Assembly: GCA_034658935.1 (NCBI GenBank)
Contig: JAYEGE010000010.1
Span: 3,903-67,902 of the forward strand
Origin: Patescibacteria group bacterium
GTDB taxonomy: Bacteria; Patescibacteriota; Minisyncoccia; Phycocordibacterales; JACOZG01
DNA length: 64,000 nt
Direction: 5' to 3'
Shown here: positions 3,882 to 50,932 of the stretch, in pieces
How positions within the stretch are numbered: position 1 is the first letter of the stretch
Layout: every line of letters starts with the position of its first letter
Program-made: the position numbers and the translations under genes
The notes under the pieces: model-generated
What the model was told of the DNA's origin: nothing
Databases searched by the model: none
What the model saw: only the letters and a program-made list of their open reading frames with translations

Positions 3882-3934
3882 GAGTCGATTTTAACATAAA
3901 AGAGCTCGCTCTGTGTTACCATTAAGCTCTATTT

Positions 3935-5725
3935 ATGGCTAAGAAATGGCGGCTTTTACCGCAAAAAGAGGGGGATCTACAGAGTCAGCTACTCGCTAAT
4001 CGCGGCCTATCTAAGGGTGAATGGGGTGATTGGCTGGAGCCGAACTATGAGCGAGATGTCCACGATCCCTTCTTAATGAAGGATATGGACAAGGCCATTA
4101 AACTGGTTCTTGAAAGTGTGGAGCGCGGCGATCGGATCGCCATCTTTGCTGACTATGATGCTGACGGAGTGCCGGGTGCGGTGATCCTGTCAGAATGGTT
4201 AAAGCGAGTTGGTCATACTAATTACGAAGTTTATATTCCTCATCGTCATGAAGAAGATTATGGGCTCTCTATCAAAGCGATAGAGGGATTGGCGGCCAAT
4301 GGCTGCAAGATTTTAATTACTATTGATTGTGGGATTACTAATGTTGCTGAAGTGGCGCGAGCTAAGGAGTTAGGAATGAAAGTTATTGTTACTGATCATC
4401 ATCTCTTATCGGATACGGTTCCATCCGCAGATGCAATTCTTAACCCCAAACAAGCGGACGACGAGTATCCGGAAAAAATGCTCTGCGGCGCCGGAGTCAT
4501 TTTCAAATTGGCGCAAGGACTACTAAAGGCCACAACGAGTGGGGCAGATTTTCGCGGCTTTACCCTAAAGGGCTCCCTGCCCGAAGTTGCTACATCGTCG
4601 CAGGCGGGCGACGCCGAGTCTCCGCCGCCCACCAAAGCAGATGACGCCAAGTCTGCACTCGCGTTTGGAAAATGGCTGCTCGACTTAGTGGCGATTGCTA
4701 CCGTTGGCGACATGGTGCCATTGCGTGGTGAGAATAGGGCCCTAGCTTATTTTGGTCTTAAGGTATTGCGCCGCACTCGTCGCCCTGGGCTCATTAGTCT
4801 CTACCGCCTATTGCGCCTGGACCCAACGCATCTTACTGAAGATGATATTGGTTTCTCGATTGCTCCGCGGATTAATTCGGCCAGTCGGATGACTCATGCC
4901 GAAGAGGCTTATGAGCTCTTGAGTACCGCTGACCCGGCTCGAGCGATGGTCCTGGCCGAGCATTTAGAAAAAAAGAATAAGGAACGGAAGCAATGGGTGG
5001 AGAAGATTCTACAAGACGAAGCGGTGCTGGAAATTGCCCAGCAGGACTCGCCGGTACTGGTGGCGGGGAGTGAGGATTGGAACTTGGGTGTGTTGGGTTT
5101 GGCCTGTGCTCGCTTGGCGGAAGAGCATTATCGTCCCGTCTTCCTTTGGGGTAAGAATGGTAGTGGGTTAATAAAGGGCTCTTGCCGTTCAGATGGCAAT
5201 ATTAATGTGGTTGAATTGATGAAGGGCGCCGCTGAGGGCTTATTTGCTAAGCAAGGTGGCCATGCGATGGCGGGTGGCTTCTCCGTCACGCCTGAGCGCT
5301 TGGGCGAGTTGTCTGATGAACTTAATAAGTCTTACGCCAAGTTAACTGCCGGCTCTGACGAGATTGAGGAAGCAGAATTGCCACTCGATTATGTTTTGCG
5401 GCTGGCTGATATTAATGAAGACACTAATGCTCTGGTCTCCGCCCTCGCTCCTTACGGGATGGGTTTTAATAAGCCGCTCTTCTTATTGTCGCAGGTTAAA
5501 TTGCTGGGGCGGCGCAGTTTCGGGGCCACTAATAATCACTTAGAGCTAACGGTGGGGGATGGTGAGTTTTCAGTTAAGGCGGTGGCCTTCTTCCAAGCGA
5601 ACACCTTCACTGATATTTTAAATAATCACTCGATGCTCGACTTGGCTGTCCACTTAGAAAAGAGTTATTTCCGTGGCCGCCCCGAACTCCGTCTCCGCCT
5701 CACCGACCTCCGCCCCTCAGGCTAG
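3935..5725 (+). CDS. recJ: Single-stranded-DNA-specific exonuclease RecJ (DHH/DHHA1 family)
   Basis: Contains IFADYDADGV (DHH motif I), VTDHH (DHH motif) and a C-terminal DHHA1-like region. Length is 596 aa. Confidence 0.85.
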   Translation: MAKKWRLLPQKEGDLQSQLLANRGLSKGEWGDWLEPNYERDVHDPFLMKDMDKAIKLVLESVERGDRIAIFADYDADGVPGAVILSEWLKRVGHTNYEVYIPHRHEEDYGLSIKAIEGLAANGCKILITIDCGITNVAEVARAKELGMKVIVTDHHLLSDTVPSADAILNPKQADDEYPEKMLCGAGVIFKLAQGLLKATTSGADFRGFTLKGSLPEVATSSQAGDAESPPPTKADDAKSALAFGKWLLDLVAIATVGDMVPLRGENRALAYFGLKVLRRTRRPGLISLYRLLRLDPTHLTEDDIGFSIAPRINSASRMTHAEEAYELLSTADPARAMVLAEHLEKKNKERKQWVEKILQDEAVLEIAQQDSPVLVAGSEDWNLGVLGLACARLAEEHYRPVFLWGKNGSGLIKGSCRSDGNINVVELMKGAAEGLFAKQGGHAMAGGFSVTPERLGELSDELNKSYAKLTAGSDEIEEAELPLDYVLRLADINEDTNALVSALAPYGMGFNKPLFLLSQVKLLGRRSFGATNNHLELTVGDGEFSVKAVAFFQANTFTDILNNHSMLDLAVHLEKSYFRGRPELRLRLTDLRPSG

Positions 5726-6995: not shown

Positions 6996-7439
6996 ATGCA
7001 AAAGATTTTTTTAAACACTGATGGTGGGTCACGAGGAAATCCGGGGATAGCCGGCGCAGGGGCGGCGATTTCTAACGAGAGCGGCGAGGTGCTCCAGAGG
7101 GCCAGCAAGGCCCTAGGCACGATGACAAATAACGAGGCCGAGTACAGCGCTCTAATCTTGGGCTTAGAGACCGCCAAGAAGATGCTAGGTAAGGAGAAAG
7201 CCAAACAAGCGGAAGTGGTGGCCAGACTAGATAGCGAATTAGTCACTAAACAATTGAATGGCGAGTATCAAATCAAAGAGGAACGGCTCTTCCCACTCTT
7301 TATTAGAATTTGGAACATGCGCGTAGCCAACTTCGGGCAATTAAGCTTCACTTATGTTCCCCGAGAACAAAACAAAGTGGCAGATCAATTGGCCAACGAG
7401 GCAATGGATCAGCAAACAAAACAGGCTCCGCTAATGTAA
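6996..7439 (+). CDS. rnhA: Ribonuclease HI
   Basis: Contains NTDGGSRGNPGIAGAG (the TDGSxxGNPG motif) and a C-terminal DQLAN region. Length is 147 aa. Confidence 0.85.
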   Translation: MQKIFLNTDGGSRGNPGIAGAGAAISNESGEVLQRASKALGTMTNNEAEYSALILGLETAKKMLGKEKAKQAEVVARLDSELVTKQLNGEYQIKEERLFPLFIRIWNMRVANFGQLSFTYVPREQNKVADQLANEAMDQQTKQAPLM

Positions 7440-7458
7440 CCCATCTCTCCCCCTAAAA

Positions 7459-7481
7459 TGTTAAACACTCGGTGTTTAACA
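7459..7481. repeat. Palindrome TGTTAAACAC-TCG-GTGTTTAACA immediately upstream of the comEC start
   Basis: A perfect 10-bp inverted repeat with a 3-nt spacer. It is a sequence variant of the TTGGACAC-N3-GTGTCCAA architecture and a candidate operator. Confidence 0.6.
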
Positions 7482-7485
7482 CTAT

Positions 7486-8997
7486 GTGATTATGGCGTCT
7501 CGATATGTTCTTGGTATCGCGCTCGGTTTTTTCAGTGGGGTTATTTTGGCTACCTGGTGGGGTGGCATTGATTGGGCCCTAGCTGGTTTCCTGGTCTTGG
7601 TATCTCTGGTGTTACTCGCTACTCGTTACTTGGTCAGCGATAGGCCGCGGCTCTTTCTCTGTTTAGCATTGATATTAATTGGTGTAGCGCTCGGCGCAGG
7701 CCGTCTATGGTTAAATTTCGATGACACCTATCTGAAATTGGCCTCGCAGGCAGACCAGAAGGTGCAATTAGAGGGGGTAGTGGTGGAGGAACCGGACCAA
7801 CGAGATGATTATACTCGTTTGATTGTCCGCCTAAAGGACGAAGATTTTAAAATCTTAATCACTGCCCCACTCTACCCAACCTATCGTTATGGTGATGAGC
7901 TGGCGCTCACTGGTAAGCTGCGCCGCCCAGAGAATTTTACCGGTGACGCTGGGCGAGAATTCGATTACGTTAATTACTTGGCTAAGGATGATATTCGTTA
8001 TCAACTCTACCAACCAGGGGTAACTCTTCTGGCCCGCGACCAAGGTAATTGGTTGAAGGGCGGCTTACTTAAAATAAAGGGCGCTTTTCTGGGGCGAGTT
8101 AATTTAATCCTCCCTGAGCCGGAAAGCTCGCTCTTGGCTGGCCTACTCTTGGGCACTAAACAATCTCTTGGTAGTGAGTGGCTAGAGCGTTTCCAAATAG
8201 CTGGTGTTTCGCACATTATTGTCCTCTCTGGTTATAACGTTACAATCATTGCCGACAACCTTATTAAGTTCTTTGCTTTTATTCCCGCCTTACCCCGAGC
8301 GGCCGGTTGGTCGCTTGGTGGGTTATCCATAATTCTCTTTGCCATTATGACTGGCGCCGGGCCCACTGTGCTTCGCGCTTCTCTGATGGCGCTTATTGCT
8401 CTCTTTGGTCGAGCAACGGGGCGGGTTTACGATGCTAGTCTGGCTCTCCTCATTGCCGCTTTAATGATGGTGCTCATCAACCCCCAGATTCTGGTTTACG
8501 ATATCGGCTTCCAACTCTCTTTCTTGGCCACTCTCGGTTTAATTTATCTTTTGCCGGCTTTGGAACGTAGTTTTTCTTGGTTGGCCCCAAGAAAGGTTAT
8601 GAAAATTATGCGGACTTGGTGGGCCTTAGTCCGAGAGGGGATTCGTTCTATTGCTGTCTCTACTATTGCCGCTCAGATTGCTGTCCTGCCCTGGCTGCTC
8701 TATAAGATGGGAATCCTTTCTTTCGTTGCTTTGCCGGCCAATCTCCTCATCCTTGCTTCTATTCCCTTAACTATGTTCTTTGGTTTATTCGCTGGTTTAC
8801 TTGCTTTCATCTCCACCTGGTTGGCCTGGCCCTTTGCCCTCCTGGCCCACGCCTTTCTCTCCTACCAATTATTAGTCGTCCAATTCCTTTCTGACATTCC
8901 CCTCGCCGCCATCAACATCCCTCTCTTCCCTTGGTGGGCGGCTGTTTTGGCCTATGTCCTGCTTGGTTATTGGATCGCTAGACCGAAATTGCCCTAG
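7486..8997 (+). CDS. comEC: ComEC/Rec2 competence protein, N-terminal part (DUF4131 plus competence membrane domain)
   Basis: A multi-TM protein with GVSHIIVLSGYNV (ComEC competence-domain motif). It ends at a stop 20 nt before the separate MBL-domain ORF, which is in a different frame. Confidence 0.75.
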   Translation: MIMASRYVLGIALGFFSGVILATWWGGIDWALAGFLVLVSLVLLATRYLVSDRPRLFLCLALILIGVALGAGRLWLNFDDTYLKLASQADQKVQLEGVVVEEPDQRDDYTRLIVRLKDEDFKILITAPLYPTYRYGDELALTGKLRRPENFTGDAGREFDYVNYLAKDDIRYQLYQPGVTLLARDQGNWLKGGLLKIKGAFLGRVNLILPEPESSLLAGLLLGTKQSLGSEWLERFQIAGVSHIIVLSGYNVTIIADNLIKFFAFIPALPRAAGWSLGGLSIILFAIMTGAGPTVLRASLMALIALFGRATGRVYDASLALLIAALMMVLINPQILVYDIGFQLSFLATLGLIYLLPALERSFSWLAPRKVMKIMRTWWALVREGIRSIAVSTIAAQIAVLPWLLYKMGILSFVALPANLLILASIPLTMFFGLFAGLLAFISTWLAWPFALLAHAFLSYQLLVVQFLSDIPLAAINIPLFPWWAAVLAYVLLGYWIARPKLP

Positions 8998-42580: not shown

Positions 42581-42880
42581 TTATTTTTTGTGCTGTTTGT
42601 TAAACCTCGGGGCTTCTTTGCCGATAATCCGTTTTTCTATTTGTAGGGCTTGGGGCTTGTTCTCTACCTGAGCAACCTTGAACTTAGTCCCGCCGGGGAT
42701 GTGATCTTTCTTGAACTGTAGATGGTTTGTGAGGCGCTGTTGCACGTTCCCCCTACCTGCCACTCCGGTATACAGGTTTTCCCCGGCATTGTTAGTAAGC
42801 TCGTATACGATCGTTTTGTTTTTGGGCACTTTTGCGACGTTGGTTTTGTCGAACTTTTGTGGGCGGTTAAATTTGATCAT
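42581..42880 (-). CDS. Small GIY-YIG (URI-domain, YhbQ/COG2827-like) nuclease-domain protein
   Basis: IVYELTNNAGENLYTGVAGRGNVQQRLTNH matches the GIY-x10-YIG-x8-R-x2-H pattern, plus a downstream conserved Glu region. Confidence 0.5.
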   Translation of the reverse strand: MIKFNRPQKFDKTNVAKVPKNKTIVYELTNNAGENLYTGVAGRGNVQQRLTNHLQFKKDHIPGGTKFKVAQVENKPQALQIEKRIIGKEAPRFNKQHKK

Positions 42881-42961
42881 AGTGTGGATAAGTTATTTAC
42901 ATTACTAATATTGTTTGCTAACATTCAAAATATAGCATATAGAAAATAAATAGCAAACTTA

Positions 42962-43618
42962 ATGCTTACTAAGAAACAAAAAAGCGTTTTTGACTACATT
43001 AAGCGGTATGCGGAGAAGAATGAATATGCTCCCTCCCTCGAAGAGATCCAGGGGCATTTTAAGCTCGCCTCTGTCTCAACGGCCTTCTATTACATCAATA
43101 GGTTGGTGGAGGGCGGGTACCTAAAGCGAGAGGCCCATCAGGCTAGGTCGATAAGTGTCCAGCCAGATGAGGTGATTAAGTCAGCCCTTCCAAAACAGAT
43201 AAAATCCTTTTCTGTTCCAGTGCTTGGTTCGGCCAATGCTGGCGAGGCAGTCTTACGTGCAGAAGAAAATATTGAAGGGCATCTCAGGGTCTCTCGTCGT
43301 ATATTAAGTGGGAAAGACGGAGTCTTCGCTCTGCGTGTTAAGGGTGATTCAATGAACAGGGCAAAAATAGATGGTAAAAATCTTGAAGATGACGATTTCG
43401 TGCTCATTGATTCGGAGTATAAAAGTCCCAGAGATGGTGACTATGTCTTGTCTGTTATAGAAGGCCATGCCAATCTCAAGAAATTTAAGCGAGACGGTAA
43501 AACTGGTCAAGTTACGCTTATTTCTGAGTCGACGAATACCAAACACAAACCGATTTTTATTTCTGGCGACGATGATTTTATGATAAATGGTAAAATAATA
43601 AGTGTGGTGAAGAAATGA
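42962..43618 (+). CDS. lexA: LexA-like repressor (winged-HTH plus S24 peptidase domain)
   Basis: N-terminal LTKKQKSVFDYIKRY...SLEEI (LexA DNA-binding domain), VKGDSMN (Ser nucleophile) and NLKKFKR (Lys). Its stop overlaps the MTase start (ATGA). Confidence 0.8.
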   Translation: MLTKKQKSVFDYIKRYAEKNEYAPSLEEIQGHFKLASVSTAFYYINRLVEGGYLKREAHQARSISVQPDEVIKSALPKQIKSFSVPVLGSANAGEAVLRAEENIEGHLRVSRRILSGKDGVFALRVKGDSMNRAKIDGKNLEDDDFVLIDSEYKSPRDGDYVLSVIEGHANLKKFKRDGKTGQVTLISESTNTKHKPIFISGDDDFMINGKIISVVKK

Positions 43619-44769
43619 CTTTTATGAAGAAGAATATAACCCACAAACTCGCCGAATTATTTTCAGGTCCTGGCGGTTTATCGCTAGGTATTGTTTCTGC
43701 TGAAGCGGAAGATTTGGGGGGCAGGAAATATAGTGTAAGCTCGCTTTGGGCAAATGATATAGATGAGGATTCCTGCAATACTTATGCGAAAAATATACAT
43801 AATGGCGATAGAACCAACGTTTTATGCTCCCCAGTTGAAAAAATTGATTTTAAAAAGGTGCCAAAATTTGATGCACTCGCTTTTGGATTTCCGTGTAATG
43901 ATTTTAGTATAGTGGGAGAGCAGAAGGGTTTCGGTGGTAAGTATGGACCTTTATACACCTACGGTGTAAAAGCAATAAAGGAACACAACCCCAAATGGTT
44001 CATTGCTGAAAACGTCAGTGGCCTGCAAAGCGCAAACAATGGTGATGCTTTTGGGAAAATACTCGACGATTTAGAAAATGCGGGGAATGGATACGTACTT
44101 ACACCCCATCTATATAAATTTGAGGAGTACGGTGTTCCTCAGACGAGGCATAGAATTGTCATAGTCGGCATAAGAAAAGACCTCGGTCTTGAATTTAAGG
44201 TACCGACTCCCACTACTTTAGATGGATACGTTACGGCTAAGTCGGCCATTGAAGAACCGCCAATCTCAGAGTCTGCTCAAAACCACGAGCTTACAAAGCA
44301 GGCAAAGATTGTTGTAGAAAGGCTGAAACATATCCCTCCAGGCGAAAATGCCTGGTATGATGGTTTACCTGAACACCTAAGGCTCAACGTAAAATCTGCA
44401 CGTATGAGTCAAATTTATAAACGACTACATCCCAAGAAACCGTCATACACGATAACGGGAAGTGGCGGTGGGGGAACACATGGGTATCATTGGACAGAGA
44501 ATCGTGCCCTTACAAATAGGGAGAGGGCTCGCATTCAGACCTTTCCTGACAGTTTTATATTTGATGGCTCTAAGGAGAGTGTGCGAAAACAAATAGGCAT
44601 GGCCGTACCGGTCAGGGGGGCGAAGATTATCGCGGAGGCCGTGCTTAAAACTTTTGCGGGCGTTACTTATGAATGGATTCCACCCAGAATAACAAATGGT
44701 AACGGTCGTGATAAAAGTAATACTAAACAGACACCACTGTTTAATAAAACTGACCTACAGCCTGTTTAA
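43615..44769 (+). CDS. DNA (cytosine-5)-methyltransferase
   Basis: Motif I LFSGPGGLSLG, motif IV FGFPCNDFSIVG (PC dipeptide), motif VI ENV, and a C-terminal TRD. Confidence 0.9.
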   Translation: MTFMKKNITHKLAELFSGPGGLSLGIVSAEAEDLGGRKYSVSSLWANDIDEDSCNTYAKNIHNGDRTNVLCSPVEKIDFKKVPKFDALAFGFPCNDFSIVGEQKGFGGKYGPLYTYGVKAIKEHNPKWFIAENVSGLQSANNGDAFGKILDDLENAGNGYVLTPHLYKFEEYGVPQTRHRIVIVGIRKDLGLEFKVPTPTTLDGYVTAKSAIEEPPISESAQNHELTKQAKIVVERLKHIPPGENAWYDGLPEHLRLNVKSARMSQIYKRLHPKKPSYTITGSGGGGTHGYHWTENRALTNRERARIQTFPDSFIFDGSKESVRKQIGMAVPVRGAKIIAEAVLKTFAGVTYEWIPPRITNGNGRDKSNTKQTPLFNKTDLQPV

Positions 44770-45591
44770 AAGTTCCCGCCAACTTTTTTTATCTCGGTGA
44801 AGTCGGCCCGATTTGATGACGTATCTGTGGCCGTCGAAAGTTTGACCTGGGATAGAGGTTACTTTCTCAAGTTCATCCTTGTAACAATATCCTGCTATTT
44901 CGCACGGGATATTACCTAGATCAGGAATATCATTCTTGTATTTGTCATAGTGCGGTTGACCTGAGACAAGTTTGGTTATCTCGGACTTTGAGACTCGCAA
45001 TAAATGGTCGTCTTCTAGGGCTGGTCGACAGTATATATAAACGTCAGAGCTTCTTTCGGGTATCTCGACCTCGTTCCCGCCCAGTACGAGGTACGCACTT
45101 TTGGGCTTGGATGATTTAATGCCTACTCCTATTGAGGGTTCTACCCATTTGCTCCTTTTTAGCACTTTTGTTATATCTTGCGGAACAATGTTGGGGTGTA
45201 TATCAAAATCTAGCTCTACGCTGACGTTAAATTTCTGTTTAAAAAATTTTTGAACAGCAATCTCGCCCAACTGTCCCTTTACCCAATTTGTAACTTTTTG
45301 ACCAAATTCCCTGATTCTACTGGTGCCCCAATCAGAAGTTACATATCCTCTAAAATGTTGTGCTAACACAAAGTCCATACATCTGGCGTAGTCATCCCTA
45401 TCGAGGGCGATAGTCCTTTGGTCGTAATCTTTTCTCCATTCTTCCAGATCGGTTTTATTAAACGTAAATCTACCTCTTCCCGCTCTGGGTAGTGGAGTTA
45501 TCTCGTCCGCATTTTTGAAGTAATTCTCAAAAGTTTTCTCGTCTAGTTCGAGAAATTTCACGGCTTCTTTTTTAGTCAAGATATCTGGCAT
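44755..45591 (-). CDS. Putative restriction endonuclease with an N-terminal excisionase-type HTH (HTH_17-like)
   Basis: It is convergent with and overlaps the 3' end of the C5-MTase gene. The N-terminus LTKKEAVKFLELDEKTF...RFTFNKTDLEEWRK resembles the phage Xis/MerR-type HTH. The C-terminal domain is unassigned. Confidence 0.45.
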   Translation of the reverse strand: MPDILTKKEAVKFLELDEKTFENYFKNADEITPLPRAGRGRFTFNKTDLEEWRKDYDQRTIALDRDDYARCMDFVLAQHFRGYVTSDWGTSRIREFGQKVTNWVKGQLGEIAVQKFFKQKFNVSVELDFDIHPNIVPQDITKVLKRSKWVEPSIGVGIKSSKPKSAYLVLGGNEVEIPERSSDVYIYCRPALEDDHLLRVSKSEITKLVSGQPHYDKYKNDIPDLGNIPCEIAGYCYKDELEKVTSIPGQTFDGHRYVIKSGRLHRDKKSWRELLNRL

Positions 45592-45825
45592 AACAATACA
45601 TTTGTAATTTTCACTATGCCCGATTCCCGTCGATTTTTCAAGCTACTCTCTCGTGACGGCACAGCCTGGTCTCGCATTTGGGCGGACGCTTCGCTATCTC
45701 ACTCGCTACGCCCCGGCATATGCGGCTCCGCTCTTTCAAAACCCACGGTTTTGAATAATTTCCTCCACGGGGAACTCCCGTTCCCCGACCCCCTCCCTGG
45801 TTCGATTCCGCCCATCTCACTGCTT

Positions 45826-45863
45826 TTTTCTTTGAAAAAACAAAACACCCCAGCAGGGGTGTT
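45826..45863 (-). terminator. Rho-independent terminator downstream of tmRNA (ACACCCC-UGCU-GGGGUGU plus U-run on the minus strand)
   Basis: A GC hairpin followed by TTTTGTTTTTT on the minus strand. A second hairpin CCCCTCGAT..ATCGAGGGG lies at 45896-45925. Confidence 0.7.
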
Positions 45864-45926
45864 TTGCGCTGAAGCTACGGAGTGCCGCGCACCGCGAAGC
45901 CCCTCGATAGTAATCGAGGGGCGAAG

Positions 45927-46349
45927 TGGTGGAGATGGGCGGAATCGAACCGCCGTTCAAATAGTTGTTGTAAGAGAATCTACGTGTGTAGCTAGTTTTT
46001 TGTTTTAAGCTCAGTACCTATAAAGCCAGCAAAACAATACTGAGCCGGACCTCTAAGTTTTCGGATCCTTAGCGAGATAGACTAAGGGACCTAGCTCGCG
46101 AGAATTACACTCTAGTCCGCGGCACGAGCGCCTGACGGGTAGAATGCCTACTTAAGCCTACAACACTAAAAGTGTCGGCCGGCGCTGAAAGCGCTTAGGC
46201 TAAAGCGAAAGCAGGGGTGAAGTATGGCGAAGCCACACCTCGGTCAGATGAATTGGCATTTATCTGGTTTGCCAACAGGTTTACGAGTCTTTTGGCCTCC
46301 TCGACACGCACACTTAAAACAGGACTACCTGTCTAAGCCGATCATCCCC
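45927..46349 (-). ncRNA. ssrA: tmRNA (SsrA)
   Basis: On the minus strand the 5' end is GGGGAUGAUCGGCUUAGACAGG, a shape comparable to E. coli GGGGCUGAUUCUGGAUUCGACGGG. A PK1-like CGAGGAGGCC...CUCGUAAA is present. The candidate tag ORF is ...GCU UUC GCU UUA GCC UAA (…PAFALA*). The 3' end is GGCGGUUCGAUUCCGCCCAUCUCCACCA, which is T-arm, acceptor and CCA. It lies immediately downstream of smpB. Confidence 0.75.
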
Positions 46350-46350
46350 A

Positions 46351-46794
46351 TTATTGGTTTTTCAAGGTTCGCTGGATCTCGATATCCGTCTCGCGTTTCT
46401 TGATGATACTGCGCTTGTCGCGTTTCTTCTTACCTCGGGCTATAGCTAGCTCTAGCTTCAAGCGTCGTCCTTTATTATACACAGCAAGCGGGATAATTGT
46501 CAACCCCTTCTTATCCTCAACTCCCCCTAATTGTTCCAATTCCTTTTTCGTTAGTAGTAGCCGGAGATTGCGGTCTCCCTCATGCCCCTCAGGTATGTTT
46601 TTGGCTTGGTAGGGATGGATACTCGCGCCAACTAAATAGGCTTCACCCCCACGGACAAGGACTCGAGACCCAGTCAAATTAGCTTCACCGGCGCGGAGGG
46701 ATTTCACTTCATGGCCATAGAGTTCTAGGCCCGCTTCAAAGCGCTCAAGAATTTCGTAATCAAAACTAGCCTTTTTGTTGCTTACCAGGGCCAT
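46351..46794 (-). CDS. smpB: SsrA-binding protein SmpB
   Basis: Contains FDYEILERFEAGLELYGHEVKSLR and a C-terminal basic tail. Confidence 0.95.
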   Translation of the reverse strand: MALVSNKKASFDYEILERFEAGLELYGHEVKSLRAGEANLTGSRVLVRGGEAYLVGASIHPYQAKNIPEGHEGDRNLRLLLTKKELEQLGGVEDKKGLTIIPLAVYNKGRRLKLELAIARGKKKRDKRSIIKKRETDIEIQRTLKNQ

Positions 46795-46898
46795 GGCCCC
46801 ATTTTAGCACCCCCGTCTCCGTTGTCGATCGTTGGGCGAGGCAGGAGTCTTGACCTGGGGGCCTTAATATAGAAGTATGGGGTTAGAAGTTCGGCGTT

Positions 46899-47504
46899 GT
46901 GCTGAATAAAAGTACCTTGTTGGGGGCTATCAATACAGGAGATGCGTTGATGAGCGGTAAGACGATGATTCAGATTTTGGTGTTTGTCGTGTTGGCCGCG
47001 GTGGTGGTATCGGCGAGATTGGTGGGGCATTTGCCCAATTTTACGCCCATCATTGCTGTGTCGCTTTTCGCGGGCTTCTTCTTCGCTCAGCGTTGGCTGG
47101 CGATCGTTCTGATCGTGGCGGCGATGGGGATTAGCGACTTGTTCCTCGGTTTTTACCAACCGGCGATCATGTTGGTGGTGTATGCGAGTTTGCTCTTGCC
47201 GATCGCGGCACGTAGTATTCTGCGGAAGGGGCTAACCGTGCCTCGTATCGGATTGACCGCGGTGGGCTGCTCGTTTACCTTCTTTCTGGCGACAAACCTA
47301 GCCGTGTGGCTGTTCTCCGGGATGTATGTCCTGACGATCACTGGTCTGGTGGAGTGCTACGTTGCGGCCCTGCCATTCTACAAGTACCAGCTAATGGGTG
47401 ATGCGTTTTGGACGACATCTCTGTTTGGCTGCTACGCCCTCTCCGGCCTTGAAAGAAGGCCCGGCGAGGCCCCATCGTCCTTTGGGTTAGCGTTGGAAGG
47501 TTGA
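46899..47504 (+). CDS. Hypothetical polytopic membrane protein (about 5 TM; possibly a small-molecule or ECF-type substrate-binding component)
   Basis: A hydrophobic 201-aa ORF. No catalytic motifs. Confidence 0.45.
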   Translation: MLNKSTLLGAINTGDALMSGKTMIQILVFVVLAAVVVSARLVGHLPNFTPIIAVSLFAGFFFAQRWLAIVLIVAAMGISDLFLGFYQPAIMLVVYASLLLPIAARSILRKGLTVPRIGLTAVGCSFTFFLATNLAVWLFSGMYVLTITGLVECYVAALPFYKYQLMGDAFWTTSLFGCYALSGLERRPGEAPSSFGLALEG

Positions 47505-47566
47505 TGACGTAGGTTAGGCCCAGACACTCCGTGATAGGCCCGCCATGTAGGCGGGCAGGCAAGCAA

Positions 47567-47584
47567 GATCCGCCGCGGCGGATG
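47567..47584. repeat. Palindrome GATCCGCCGCGGCGGATG (copy 1; a second copy is at 50863-50880)
   Basis: An identical 16-nt core ATCCGCCGCGGCGGAT at both loci. An adjacent hairpin GCCCGCC-ATGTA-GGCGGGC is at 47539-47557. Confidence 0.75.
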
Positions 47585-47600
47585 TTTAAATCCAAATATC

Positions 47601-47649
47601 AAACTTGGACACTCGGTGTCGCACACCCAGACACCAAGTGTCCAAGTTT
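47601..47649. repeat. Composite palindromic element AAACTTGGACACTCGGTGTC-GCACACCCA-GACACCAAGTGTCCAAGTTT
   Basis: 17-20-bp arms with one mismatch. Same family as 6926-6968, and directly followed by a terminator hairpin. Confidence 0.85.
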
Positions 47650-47682
47650 GGTCGGCCCCCCCAGGAGGGGGCTTTTTTCTTA
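47650..47682 (+). terminator. Rho-independent terminator (GGCCCCCCC-AGGA-GGGGGGC plus TTTTTTC)
   Basis: A GC stem and T-run read directly. Confidence 0.7.
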
Positions 47683-47685
47683 CGA

Positions 47686-48048
47686 TTACTCTTGAGGGAC
47701 GTCGGGGGTAGACGTAGCGTTAGAGCTAGTGGCCACTCTTGTTGCCAGTTCTTCGTTTGTTTTAATATCGGCGGCTGGAGTTTCTACGTTAGCTAATAGA
47801 TTTTCTCGTTCGACAACCAGGCGTTGCTCGGCTTGAGCCACTAGGCGTAGCTGCCTGGAGCCATAGGTAAAGAGTCCCACTAGCACTAGTACTGCTCCTA
47901 GTCCAGCAAGCAAGAGAAGTATAGTCATCCCTGACCGCGATGTAGTCATACTATTACCCATTAGGGTACTCCGAGTCTCTTGGGGGGTCAAGGCAGATAT
48001 CGACAGCTCCAAAACGTGGCCCAAATTATGACACGCGTCCACTCGCAC
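47686..48048 (-). CDS. Hypothetical single-pass membrane protein
   Basis: An ORF with an ILLLLAGLGAVLVLVGLF TM segment. Weak support. Confidence 0.3.
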   Translation of the reverse strand: MRVDACHNLGHVLELSISALTPQETRSTLMGNSMTTSRSGMTILLLLAGLGAVLVLVGLFTYGSRQLRLVAQAEQRLVVERENLLANVETPAADIKTNEELATRVATSSNATSTPDVPQE

Positions 48049-48155
48049 TTCTCCACAGCATATTTTCTCTCTAACCGGCGTGCATCGCTATACTTTCCAT
48101 TGGTGCTGGTCTTTGTATGTAGGGTAGGATAGACAACAAGAGGAGAAGTCGAGTC

Positions 48156-48542
48156 ATGAACAATCACGGATTGGGAGTTCTTCGGTCTTTTTTGAGAGAT
48201 ACCAAGACAAATCTGGAGCGACTGCAGCTGGCTGCTAGTAATGGAAGTCGTAAGCGTGTCAGAGCTTGTCTGAGTATCGCCGCTTGTGTACCAGAACGGG
48301 TTAACCTCCATTGGTACAGGGAACCTGGGGAAAATGACAAGTGGGAGCGAGAGTTGCCAGATGAGCAGGCCCAGATTCTGGGCGGCCTATTGGGAGACAT
48401 GGATACTCAGTGCTGCTCTTTGGCTCAGGGGCAGTTCCCCCTAGGTGAAATCAGGAGGATTGCTGGGGGTTGGATCTCTCAGGTGGATCTTCTCGCACGG
48501 GCCCTTCCTACCACGGAAGCGGCCGCTATGGTTGGTCGCTAG
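48156..48542 (+). CDS. Hypothetical protein (128 aa)
   Basis: An ORF only, upstream of ftsH. Confidence 0.25.
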   Translation: MNNHGLGVLRSFLRDTKTNLERLQLAASNGSRKRVRACLSIAACVPERVNLHWYREPGENDKWERELPDEQAQILGGLLGDMDTQCCSLAQGQFPLGEIRRIAGGWISQVDLLARALPTTEAAAMVGR

Positions 48543-48677
48543 TCCGAATCGGTGTTGCTGTATCGCCCCATCCGCTCTTGCGGGTGGGGCCTTTTGTCTG
48601 ATGGCCATCGGACAATTCGCCGAAGAGGCGTGGTCATTCCCAAAATAACCATTGCCTGCTATAATCAGCCGACTAAG

Positions 48678-50603
48678 ATGAGTACTAAGAAGAGGCGAAG
48701 ACCAAGGGCTCGGCGCTTGCGTGGCGGTCCGTTAGGGCAACTCAGCACCCAATTATTGGGGGTGATTTTGATTTTGATCACTGTGGTGGCGCTTTATTCT
48801 CTTATCGCTGACCAGGGGGAAGAGATGGAGGAGGTGACCTTTTCAGAAGTGGCTCGCCAAGTGTTAGCTGGTGACGTGGCGCAGATCGCCGTCGAGGGCG
48901 ATGAATTAGAAATTGAACTACGGGGTGGCGAGACTCAATTGTCCCAGAAAGAAACAGAATCTTCCTTATCTGAAGCCCTGGCCGCTTACGGCGTTACCGC
49001 TGAGCAATTGGCTATCGTAGATATTGAGATTAAGGGGCCTGGCGGTTTCTCCTTCTGGTTGGTTAACTTGCTCCCAATTATCTTGCCGATTTTCTTTGTC
49101 CTCTTTCTCTTTTGGTTGATTTCTAAACAAATGAAAGGGGCGAGTATGCAGGCCCTCTCCTTCGGCCAATCGAAGGCCAGGATTATTGATCCTAACGATA
49201 CCAAGCAGAGGATTACTTTTAAGGATGTAGCTGGGGTCAAGGAGGCCAAGGAGGAATTATTAGAGATCGTTGATTTCTTAAAGAACCCTAAGAAGTTTTT
49301 AGACATTGGCGCTCGTATTCCCAAGGGAGTGATCTTAATGGGTGCGCCGGGGACAGGTAAGACTCTGTTGGCCCGCGCAGTGGCGGGGGAGGCGCAGGTG
49401 CCCTTTCTCTATCTCTCTGGCTCTGACTTCGTAGAGATGTTTGTTGGTGTCGGTGCCTCGAGAGTACGGGATCTTTTCAACATGGCCAAGAAAATGGCTC
49501 CCTCGATTATCTTTGTCGATGAAATCGATGCTATTGGTCGGCATCGTGGCTCGGGTATGGGCGGCGGCAATGATGAACGGGAGCAGACTCTCAACCAGAT
49601 TCTGGTTGAGATGGATGGCTTTGAGCCGAATCAGAAATTGATTGTAATGGCGGCGACCAATAGGCCAGATGTGTTAGACCCGGCTCTCTTGCGCCCCGGT
49701 CGCTTTGATCGTCGCGTACTCTTAGACAATCCAGATATCAAAGATCGGGAAGAGATCTTGAAAATTTATGCTCGTAAGAAGCCCTTGGGAGAGGATGTTA
49801 ATTTGCAAACTATTGCCCAGCGGACACCTGGCTTCTCTGGCGCGGACTTGGCTAACTTAATGAACGAGGCGGCCATTTTAGCAGCTCGGGAAGACAGAAA
49901 GGAGATCTCTCAATACGATGTTATCCGCAGTGTCGAGAAGGTGATGCTTGGCCCTGAGCGTAAGAGCCATATCCTATCGGAGCGAGAGAAGAAGGTCACC
50001 GCCTACCACGAGATGGGGCATGCCCTAGTCGCTTCTATTCTCGAACATTCTGATCCGGTTCATAAGGTTTCCATTATTTCACGCGGACATGCGGCTGGTT
50101 ATACCCTCAAGCTTCCTTCCGAAGATAAGAAACTTCAAACTAGGCAGGAGTTCCTAGATGATATCGCTGTTTCTTTGGGTGGTTATGCCACTGAGCAAAT
50201 CATTTTTGGCGATATTACTACTGGTGCCTCCAGCGACATATCTGTGGCCACTGATTTGGCTCGCAATATGGTGACTAAGTATGGGATGAGCGACAAGTTG
50301 GGGCCGGTGGCCCTGGGCGCTAGTGAGCGAGCCTTCACCGCTTGGGGCGGTTTGAGCGAACGTCAAGTTTCAGAGTCGGTAGCTTCGGCTGTGGATGCGG
50401 AGGTGTCGCGGATTATGAACGAATCTTTAACTCGGGCTCGAGAAATTTTGACTACCCATCGCGCGGCCTTAGATAACCTAAGTGAGACCTTGATCAAAAA
50501 CGAAACAATAGACCGAGAGGAATTTGAGAAATTATTGACTGCGAATGGTATCCAGCTTAAAGAGAAGGATTGCTTGGCTGCAGATAAGGCGCTGGAGGCT
50601 TAA
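48678..50603 (+). CDS. ftsH: ATP-dependent zinc metalloprotease FtsH
   Basis: Two N-terminal TM helices, AAA Walker A GAPGTGKT, Walker [13 protein letters not shown], and HEMGHA (HExxH). The start was trimmed to MSTKKRRR. Confidence 0.95.
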
Positions 50604-50645
50604 CTTGGCACCAGCAGGCCTCTGAGCTAGGATTAGAGGAGGAGA

Positions 50646-50718
50646 GTGCCCATAGCTCAATGGTTAGAGCGCCAAGCTTATATCTTGGTGGTTCCAGGTT
50701 CGAGTCCTGGTGGGCACA
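50646..50718 (+). tRNA. tRNA-Ile with anticodon UAU (AUA-decoding). No CCA is encoded.
   Basis: Hand-folded cloverleaf. Acceptor GTGCCCA/TGGGCAC, D-arm GCTC-AATGGTTA-GAGC, anticodon stem CCAAG/CTTGG with loop CTTATAT (U33, A37), T-arm CCAGG-TTCGAGT-CCTGG, discriminator A. Confidence 0.7.
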
Positions 50719-50862
50719 TAAAATAAAGGAGACTCATGCGGATGCATGAGATGACTATTATTTTATAGTGCCCACCAGGACTCGAAAGACGGAGCCGGTA
50801 TACAAGACGAGTGAAGCGAGTGCTTGTCGGCGAGTCGGGGTCGAGAGTACTTAGATTTTTGC

Positions 50863-50880
50863 GAATCCGCCGCGGCGGAT
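50863..50880. repeat. Palindrome GAATCCGCCGCGGCGGATGA (copy 2), embedded in a longer TTTTTGC...GCAAAAA inverted repeat
   Basis: Read directly; the same 16-nt core as 47567-47584. Confidence 0.75.
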
Positions 50881-50932
50881 GAAGCAAAAAGCTTAGTAAC
50901 TCGTGACCGAGTTCTGCATAAAAAGAGCGCCC

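Follow-up and report, generated by a model that had tools for sequence, protein, structure and literature searches.

Inverted copies of tRNA and tmRNA 3′ ends mark a family of small structured elements in Patescibacteria

Why is the 3′ end of a transfer-messenger RNA (tmRNA) gene repeated, exactly and in inverted orientation, just downstream of that gene? The question is raised by a 64,000-nucleotide (nt) stretch of a Patescibacteria group bacterium (assembly GCA_034658935.1, contig JAYEGE010000010.1, forward-strand positions 3,903 to 67,902), referred to here as the window. An earlier note, written from the letters of this DNA, had pointed to the copy beside the tmRNA gene ssrA and to the same arrangement at a transfer RNA (tRNA) gene for isoleucine, and had suggested that the two share a mechanism or function. 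Our analysis indicates that they share one cause, both being arms of one family of elements, and that the recognition site for an unknown element, which the note listed among its candidates, comes close to the evidence, in that the copies are target-complementary arms of one family. Family membership and layout are well supported, whereas the way in which the elements move or act is not settled. We assign a probability of roughly 0.5 to the reading that the inverted copies are the target-complementary 5′ arms of small, gene-less, structured, non-autonomous integrative elements with a folded single-strand attachment site.

The ssrA repeat and its counterpart at tRNA-Ile

The sequence GGTTCGATTCCGCCCATCTC occurs exactly twice in the window, once on the plus strand at 45799-45818 and once on the minus strand at 45932-45951, within the 3′ end of ssrA. 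The two occurrences form an exact 20-nt inverted repeat, detected by inverted-repeat and pattern searches, in which 113 nt separate the arms and the antisense arm starts 108 nt past the gene end. The earlier note had described this copy correctly apart from its position, given as 45797-45816, which is 2 nt too low, and its minus-strand tmRNA model ending at 45927 was confirmed by the agreement of ARAGORN with Rfam (Table 1). Two matches to GGTTCGATTCCGCCCATCTC appeared in 0 of 100 dinucleotide-preserving shuffles. Among 142 tRNA and tmRNA genes in the loci of 80 relatives, none has an exact inverted copy of at least 14 nt within 400 nt downstream; the maximum is 13 nt, and the two repeats of the window are therefore unusually long and perfect. 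Several of the relatives' genes do carry inverted matches of 10-13 nt, accompanied by direct matches that reach 21 nt. A chance origin of the ssrA repeat is ruled out by the shuffles and by the relatives' loci.

Of the 5′ T-stem strand, the inverted copy includes 2 nt; it then takes in the T-loop, the 3′ T-stem strand and most of the acceptor strand (6 of 7 nucleotides), leaving out the final acceptor C and the ACCA of the tmRNA. It is not a gene, as the earlier note had also held: a second, degenerate tmRNA or tRNA on the plus strand was rejected because BLAST homology stops at 20 nt, and the permuted-tmRNA match at the copy is weak (E = 0.08). The repeats themselves were also considered as intrinsic terminators and discarded, since the bases that follow the antisense arms, AGGGAGG on the ssrA side and AGACGGAG on the tRNA-Ile side, contain no T run. 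Between the two ssrA arms lie an imperfect hairpin over the CCA end and the ssrA terminator, for which a terminator scan returned a hairpin at 45840-45867 followed by a T run on the minus strand. The copy thus sits beyond the terminator, where the earlier note had placed it, and because the terminator stands between gene and copy, the copy is outside the main ssrA transcript. The same position of the terminator between the arms led us to abandon a long-range hairpin for ssrA processing, another of the note's candidates.

The same arrangement is indeed found at tRNA-Ile (anticodon TAT; 50646-50718, plus strand), which does not encode CCA. An exact 19-nt inverted repeat (50699-50717 and 50768-50786) encloses a 50-nt spacer there, and the arm begins 49 nt beyond the gene end. 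Complementarity extends from the arm into the spacer, and the whole of 50699-50786 folds into a single hairpin of -58.8 kcal/mol (z = -13.9). The anticodon of this gene is TAT (UAU) and not the lysidine-read CAT, and the gene is kept beside ftsH and smpB across relatives.

A family of elements behind tRNA and tmRNA genes

The layout to which these arms belong was recognised first in 10 relatives. Read on the tRNA strand, it starts with the gene, whose 3′ segment constitutes copy A, followed by a spacer hairpin and an antisense 3′ acceptor piece of 9-12 nt. Hairpin P2 comes next, its apex often AA-CUGC-UU, and then the T-loop together with the 3′ T-stem strand in antisense, as in GGGGGAATCGAA. 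The element closes with AGGCRNAG, a variable hairpin, CGAGCCNGGGTC, a long hairpin, GTGAC and a direct copy B that runs from C56 of the T-loop to N73. The antisense pieces are split by P2 or, in some members including both copies of the window, contiguous. The elements measure 130-230 nt, are non-coding and lie on the strand of the gene, directly downstream of a tRNA or tmRNA.

For the core, a covariance model (R1) was built from alignment A3 with eight seeds and searched at first against 1.2 Mb of SmpB loci plus the window. All of its matches in this set (14/14) sit 40-130 nt 3′ of a tRNA or tmRNA on the same strand; two of the tmRNAs involved were missed by ARAGORN and confirmed by Rfam. A strict sequence pattern retrieved at least 120 loci from JGI metagenomes. 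Among the 126 matches listed, 98 have a same-strand tRNA or tmRNA ending no more than 250 nt upstream, and the targets comprise about 37 tRNA species plus tmRNA. Matches without an upstream gene fall mostly at contig edges, with one false positive and a few orphans. R1 identified 136 copies in the metagenome loci listed and then 26 more, which brings the core copies found by R1 among the loci listed to 176 in all, window 50782-50911 included. In many tRNA clusters, an element stands behind nearly each tRNA. One tRNA upstream of an element (locus L192, about 7330-7560) apparently contains a group I intron and was missed by ARAGORN.

We searched for these elements in existing resources. The strict pattern had 0 matches in IMG/VR, and the 2 viral matches to a relaxed pattern both failed R1, so that no true match, and with it no viral carrier, was found among IMG/VR contigs. 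Against Rfam 15, the window and 12 element-bearing loci gave matches at gathering thresholds to tRNA and tmRNA alone, and at E up to 10 just weak hairpin-type matches appear; no Rfam 15 family accounts for the elements. A literature search found no description of such elements, and the family appears to be undescribed.

The copy at tRNA-Ile belongs to the family in full. Its core (50782-50911) matches R1 with 53.9 bits (E = 1e-9), the window sequence being itself one of the eight seeds of the model; an independent check is provided by its similarity to element E2 of locus L188, which stands behind a tmRNA. The two cores are identical at 101 of 129 positions (78%), in organisms whose SmpB proteins are just 54% identical and whose tmRNAs align only in patches of about 76% identity. 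The arms diverge as the targets do, with GTGCCCACCAGGACTCGAA at the tRNA-Ile of the window and GTGGAGATGGGAGGAATCGAA at the tmRNA of L188. A 16-nt palindrome, ATCCGCCGCGGCGGAT, is present twice in the window, at the tip of helix P6 in the tRNA-Ile element (50866-50881) and in an intergenic position near DUF6580 (47568-47583). Matching of exact proteins, aimed at the population sampled, yielded one contig only, Logan L081 (SRR26901924, 4,970 nt). This independent assembly is 100% identical to window 45892-50861 and ends within the hairpin beside ssrA and within the P6 palindrome of the tRNA-Ile element; these end positions may reflect assembly breaks or population variation there.

The ssrA-side element is treated as a variant subtype, by layout and not by core. 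Its interior (45735-45798) is about 70% identical to that of the element behind the tmRNA of locus L027 (alignment A5), with compensatory changes in one hairpin; at its end, the L027 element has a direct copy of 23 nt, CCA included. On the ssrA side itself, TCCGCCCA alone could be a remnant of a direct copy B. A repeat shared by the downstream regions of ssrA and tRNA-Ile was looked for by BLAST and rejected, the common part being a 15-nt motif only.

Throughout the family, the arm tracks whichever tRNA is upstream while the core stays common. When the tRNA tail is compared with the antisense 5′ flank, the longest exact match is most often 11-12 nt and at most 21 nt, against a mode of 5 nt for mismatched tRNAs, and 5.8-6.5 of the seven variable anti-T positions match the local tRNA. 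Copy B is perfect over 19-20 nt in 27/98 elements listed and is commonly decayed in the family; where it is perfect, identity usually stops 0-3 nt from N73, and the flanks after A and B differ. CCA is encoded by 7 of the 90 element-bearing tRNAs as against 48 of 192 element-free ones, and what follows copy A is therefore part of the element. Of the 127 sites that distinguish A from B, 79 have the arm paired with A alone, 38 with both, 5 with B alone and 5 with neither; selection on arm:B pairing was not detected, the arm fitting B only at 5 of these 127 sites. A terminator-like hairpin occupies the tip of the A/antisense hairpin in 46 of the 98 elements listed.

The core is a folded structure. 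The alignment of 136 copies has 129 distinct rows; 96.3% of its cells form standard base pairs, and two-sided changes are observed in 22 of 23 core pairs; this pairing level was reached by 0 of 500 shuffles, and 3′ partners that had been slid gave 25-41%. One core pair is mostly G-U (115/129) and another is G-U in 35 rows. Since these pairs would be A-C mismatches on the opposite strand, it is the tRNA-sense strand that folds, as RNA or as top-strand single-stranded DNA. P2 occurs in 38 distinct sequences, 37 of which have stems of 8-10 bp, and these sequences make 36 different stems. The three-way junction was compared by eye with the hammerhead core motifs (CUGAUGA/GAAA) and does not fit them, and a tertiary pairing between the P2 loop (CUGC) and a GCAG of the junction showed no covariation.

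Several features are signs of mobility, among them the closeness of the window's tRNA-Ile core to that of L188. Presence and absence also vary between genomes. At the orthologous ssrA and tRNA-Ile loci, some relatives have an element and others lack one. Within a conserved Cys-Leu(taa)-Lys-Leu(tag) cluster, an element lies between Cys and Leu in loci L088 and L166, where L141 has a 22-nt spacer alone. Arrays of three or four units occur in L188 and L108, an array is also present in L088, and nested or tandem copies in L107 and L119. The tmRNA and tRNA-Arg elements of L008 share a 35-nt identical core patch and have different arms. A clean pair of empty and filled ssrA sites was sought in L051 and L047 and rejected, as the extra DNA amounts to 1.15 kb.

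Several single loci deserve separate mention. Behind one tmRNA of L188 (1716-2100), at least four units stand in tandem, and the arms of the later units mismatch that tmRNA. In L156 (11031-12176), two near-identical cores flank an open reading frame (ORF) for a 280-amino-acid (aa) Bestrophin-like membrane protein, and in L113 (2597-3534) two such cores flank an ORF for an uncharacterised 125-aa protein; these core-flanked single ORFs resemble a gene cassette. L118 has an orphan element after dnaA (5272-5380) with a tmRNA-type direct copy including CCA, and its 11.6-kb locus contains no ssrA.

Table 1. Positions of the parts of the two elements and their target genes in the window
Feature	Position	Strand	Evidence
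ssrA, tmRNA with encoded CCA	45927..46349	-	ARAGORN; Rfam RF00023, 140.2 bits
ssrA sense arm (copy A): tmRNA T-loop, 3′ T-stem strand, 3′ acceptor strand	45932..45951	-	exact 20-nt repeat I1
Imperfect spacer hairpin overlapping the CCA end	45890..45931	-	repeat I4, 19-nt arms, 79% complementary; fold
ssrA intrinsic terminator, hairpin and T run, between the arms	45835..45867	-	terminator scan; sequence
ssrA-side antisense arm, GAGATGGGCGGAATCGAACC on the ssrA strand	45799..45818	-	placed like the anti-T/anti-acceptor arm of the family
ssrA-side internal module: GGGAGGGGGTC, hairpins 45769-45786 and 45735-45755	45735..45798	-	motif search; L027 alignment A5
Junction-like motif GAAAGAGCGGAGCCG, common to the tRNA-Ile element and the family consensus GAAAGGCGGAG	45723..45737	-	BLAST of the two downstream regions
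TCCGCCCA, possible remnant of direct copy B (weak evidence)	45679..45686	-	centroid fold pairs it with the antisense arm; sequence
tRNA-Ile (TAT), no encoded CCA	50646..50718	+	ARAGORN, Rfam
tRNA-Ile sense arm (copy A)	50699..50717	+	repeat I2
Palindromic spacer, central hairpin 50733-50750	50719..50767	+	BLAST, fold
tRNA-Ile antisense arm GTGCCCACCAGGACTCGAA, contiguous	50768..50786	+	inverted-repeat search
Structured core, helices P4, P5 and P6	50782..50911	+	R1 match; fold; L188 E2 identity
Degenerate direct copy B CGAGTTCTGCAT, G-U pairing with the anti-T part of the arm kept	50908..50919	+	fold

Possible modes of movement or action

In the mechanism that we favour, the element would insert at the T-loop, at TT|CGA, through a folded single-stranded attachment site in which copy A would pair with the antisense arm to make the stem. 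A recombinase encoded elsewhere may swap one strand, with replication finishing the integration, after the fashion of CTXφ attP(+) with XerCD and of integron attC: a circular single strand would be opened in the sense arm of the hairpin-shaped site and joined to the double-stranded target. Such opening and joining would put the target copy first and then, after a short spacer, the inverted copy, the element body and finally the direct copy, as seen. The loop, often a terminator, would then serve the restored gene, and the identity block would end where the stem ends, at N73. The elements of the window may be old copies, in which copy B has decayed and the A/antisense palindrome is perfect, and the extended palindrome at tRNA-Ile was possibly perfected by template-switch correction of a quasi-palindrome. 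The earlier note had reasoned that integrase events leave direct repeats and not inverted ones. This is correct insofar as the family does have a direct copy at its far end, and incomplete insofar as integration through a folded single-strand attachment site, as in CTXφ, leaves an inverted copy as well (PMC4246890).

Several observations weigh against integration of this type. Neither a single-stranded or circular form of an element nor an empty-site read or a recombinase is among the observations. Recombinase, reverse transcriptase (RT) and Rep genes are not enriched within 3 kb of the elements, and none is present in the scanned parts of the window. The retargeting of one core family to about 37 tRNAs is left unexplained by the model. 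Arms are weaker where copy B is perfect than where it has decayed (Spearman -0.31 and -0.33; p about 0.002 and about 0.001), which is not predicted by a strict model in which both hairpin arms travel together. The strong conservation of core sequence and structure would fit a functional RNA as well, and the covariation counts rest on an alignment fitted to R1. Finally, the ssrA-side element lacks the R1 core, its best match, with filters off, having E = 2.2 in 45677-45739, and its tie to the family consists of position, arm, one homologue (L027) and a short shared motif alone.

The position of the elements on the tRNA strand, often between clustered tRNAs without terminators, is what one would expect of a functional non-coding trailer RNA, co-transcribed or read through, which would be cut out by RNase P and RNase Z and would control the maturation, quality or decay of the tRNA or tmRNA. 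The arm would base-pair with its own tRNA, in the 3′ portion, or arm and copy B would together form a tRNA-like minihelix, with the duplications a by-product of spread. The core covaries strongly, its commonest G-U pair lies on the sense strand, and it is better conserved between distant organisms than the tmRNA; arm complementarity is higher in older copies, and copy B stops at the discriminator base, so that arm and B mimic an acceptor/T minihelix. However, a terminator-like hairpin with a T run separates tRNA and element in 46/98 of the elements listed, as at ssrA in the window, and the arm:B stem shows no sign of maintenance, with pairing to B only in 5/127 of the cases in which A and B differ. 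Occupancy at orthologous tRNAs is patchy, and arrays and orphans such as that of L118 are hard to square with a cis-acting RNA; we regard this role as rather unlikely. Still less probable, in our estimate, is a retro-element of the short interspersed nuclear element (SINE) type, transcribed with the tRNA and inserted by target-primed reverse transcription through an RT encoded elsewhere, with the arm as a guide or primer-binding-like segment. The precise 3′ junction GAC|CGA beside a 5′ spacer of variable length and sequence would suit such an origin, as would a target duplication of varying length (usually 19-22 nt, at times up to 16 nt past the tRNA end), an arm complementary to about 20 3′-terminal tRNA nucleotides, like a retroviral primer-binding site, and the imperfect fit of young copies' arms to their new target, expected if the arm is inherited. 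RT genes are not enriched near the elements, though, and the duplication has a fixed left edge, at C56, at odds with the loose staggers of target-primed reverse transcription. Some arms pair with trailer nucleotides past the mature end (L005), which favours copying at the level of DNA or of the primary transcript, and there are neither poly-A tails nor a series of 5′ truncations.

Viewed from the window alone, the two loci could be local accidents without any wider family, for instance an inverted attR or a palindrome from fold-back repair, or could mark the end of an island with LexA, restriction-modification (RM) and GIY-YIG genes. Over 88 nt, the tRNA-Ile locus is nearly palindromic around a central hairpin, and the block beside ssrA is low in GC and absent from relatives. 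Yet the tRNA-Ile side matches R1, the ssrA spacer holds two separate hairpins and is not palindromic, and the window has no direct repeat on the far side and no integrase in its scanned parts. The R1 match and the recurrence of the layout at about 37 tRNA species among the matches listed largely refute local accidents, which we consider very improbable; the same recurrence makes an inversion scar, as envisaged in the earlier note, unnecessary. A bolder version of mobility, which we hold to be unlikely, takes the elements to be nucleic-acid-guided: a conserved folded scaffold would bear an arm of about 20 nt that can be exchanged and consists of one or two pieces, and by base pairing this arm would read the segment from T-loop to 3′ end of any tRNA or tmRNA gene and direct insertion there, making the elements programmable, protein-gene-free parasites of Patescibacteria tRNA genes served by enzymes of the host or a helper. 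RNA acting as the guide has no support in the evidence.

The neighbouring block and known systems compared

The window is core chromosome of a bacterium of the Patescibacteria (candidate phyla radiation, CPR), with glycolysis genes, recJ, comEC, ribosomal protein operons, ftsH, smpB and glyA. The closest relatives by SmpB (54-68% identical) are metagenome-assembled genomes labelled Paceibacterota, Patescibacteria or Saccharibacteria, and the neighbourhood of smpB-ssrA and ftsH-tRNA-Ile(TAT) is kept in relatives. Next to ssrA, the block 42581-45591 has a lower GC content (0.41-0.45). Its genes specify a GIY-YIG protein and a LexA-like S24 protein, together with a C5 DNA methyltransferase and an HTH_17 protein of 278 aa, probably a restriction nuclease. 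No homologues of these proteins were found near smpB in 80 relatives, and the region downstream of ssrA is therefore variable. The Pfam content of the block is limited to GIY-YIG, LexA/S24, DNA_methylase and HTH_17, with no integrase or recombinase. When the window was searched with 22 nt from the tmRNA 3′ end, the next-best site agreed at 16/22 positions and lay off the island edge; an island bounded by attachment sites at ssrA was rejected, as no copy of the tmRNA end lies on the far side. The earlier note had named this block as the candidate cargo. The missing far-side direct copy, the lack of a recombinase and the normally gene-less, 130-230-nt make-up of family members speak against that, and nothing supports a link between block and element. 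Elsewhere in the window, the neighbour of comEC at 6996-7439 codes for an RNase H-like protein of 147 aa (Pfam RVT_3 / RNase_H), and the scanned parts contain no RT domain.

A 20-base oddity at one gene thus marks a large folded, gene-less family across a major uncultivated bacterial group. If the folded single-strand site is true, the principle of CTXφ and integrons extends to tRNA genes and to gene-less elements; if the arm truly guides, the family would be a natural programmable targeting system; and if the elements are functional RNAs, they would add a new layer of tRNA and tmRNA biology in minimal-genome organisms. In every case annotation is affected, through false 'tRNA fragments', long hairpins and assembly breaks beside tRNA genes.

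Islands at tRNA and tmRNA genes carry an identity block from the T-loop to the 3′ end, the gene being restored by the incoming copy and direct repeats flanking the insert, and the T-loop is the usual sublocation for tRNA-targeting tyrosine integrases. The elements share with tyrosine-integrase islands and prophages the identity block from T-loop to gene 3′ end and the flanking direct repeats, and their target gene would likewise be restored by the incoming copy. Unlike them, they have no integrase or cargo, are about the size of the attP site alone, carry an additional inverted target copy and place the same core at dozens of tRNAs. Casposons duplicate the last 14-15 bp of a tRNA gene, and a target duplication made of the tRNA 3′ end is thus common to both; with miniature inverted-repeat transposable elements (MITEs) and other cis-mobilisable elements, the family shares small size, non-autonomy, several copies per genome and variation in presence. 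By contrast with MITEs and casposons, the inspected elements lack terminal inverted repeats, their duplication is at least 19 nt long with one edge fixed in the T-loop, and target choice appears to involve a complementarity of about 20 nt. A variable, target-matching segment of about 20 nt on a conserved folded scaffold also recalls the retroviral primer-binding site, the bridge RNA of IS110 and the ωRNA of TnpB, although here no gene for a partner protein is adjacent and both arm segments pair with the same strand.

Integron attC sites act as folded single strands, on the same principle as CTXφ. Their conserved structure, strand preference and extra-helical features have counterparts in the family, as do the arrays of cassettes beside a fixed site, and the two cases of duplicated cores flanking an ORF add to the likeness. 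The elements differ in having no R or L boxes and no adjacent intI, in that one arm copies the chromosomal target, and in a highly conserved core sequence where attC conserves structure only.

The system compared last is CTXφ, an integrative, mobile, Xer-exploiting element (IMEX), in which two inverted attachment sites lie 90 bp apart, XerC exchanges a single strand and replication completes the process without an element-encoded integrase; integration through the folded attP of the (+) single-stranded DNA leaves the inverted copy next to the target (PMC4246890). Whereas its target is dif, the target here is the T-loop and 3′ end of a tRNA or tmRNA, and the elements are gene-less, 130-230 nt long and built on a strongly conserved structured core, with no true match in IMG/VR; neither a single-stranded DNA form nor a Rep protein or phage was seen. 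What the two have in common is an inverted, attachment-site-like pair with a short spacer, lying beside the target and capable of forming a hairpin, as at both loci of the window, together with the lack of an element-encoded integrase, a one-strand exchange that replication would complete, the occurrence of tandem arrays and the existence of satellite-sized relatives (PMC4246890).

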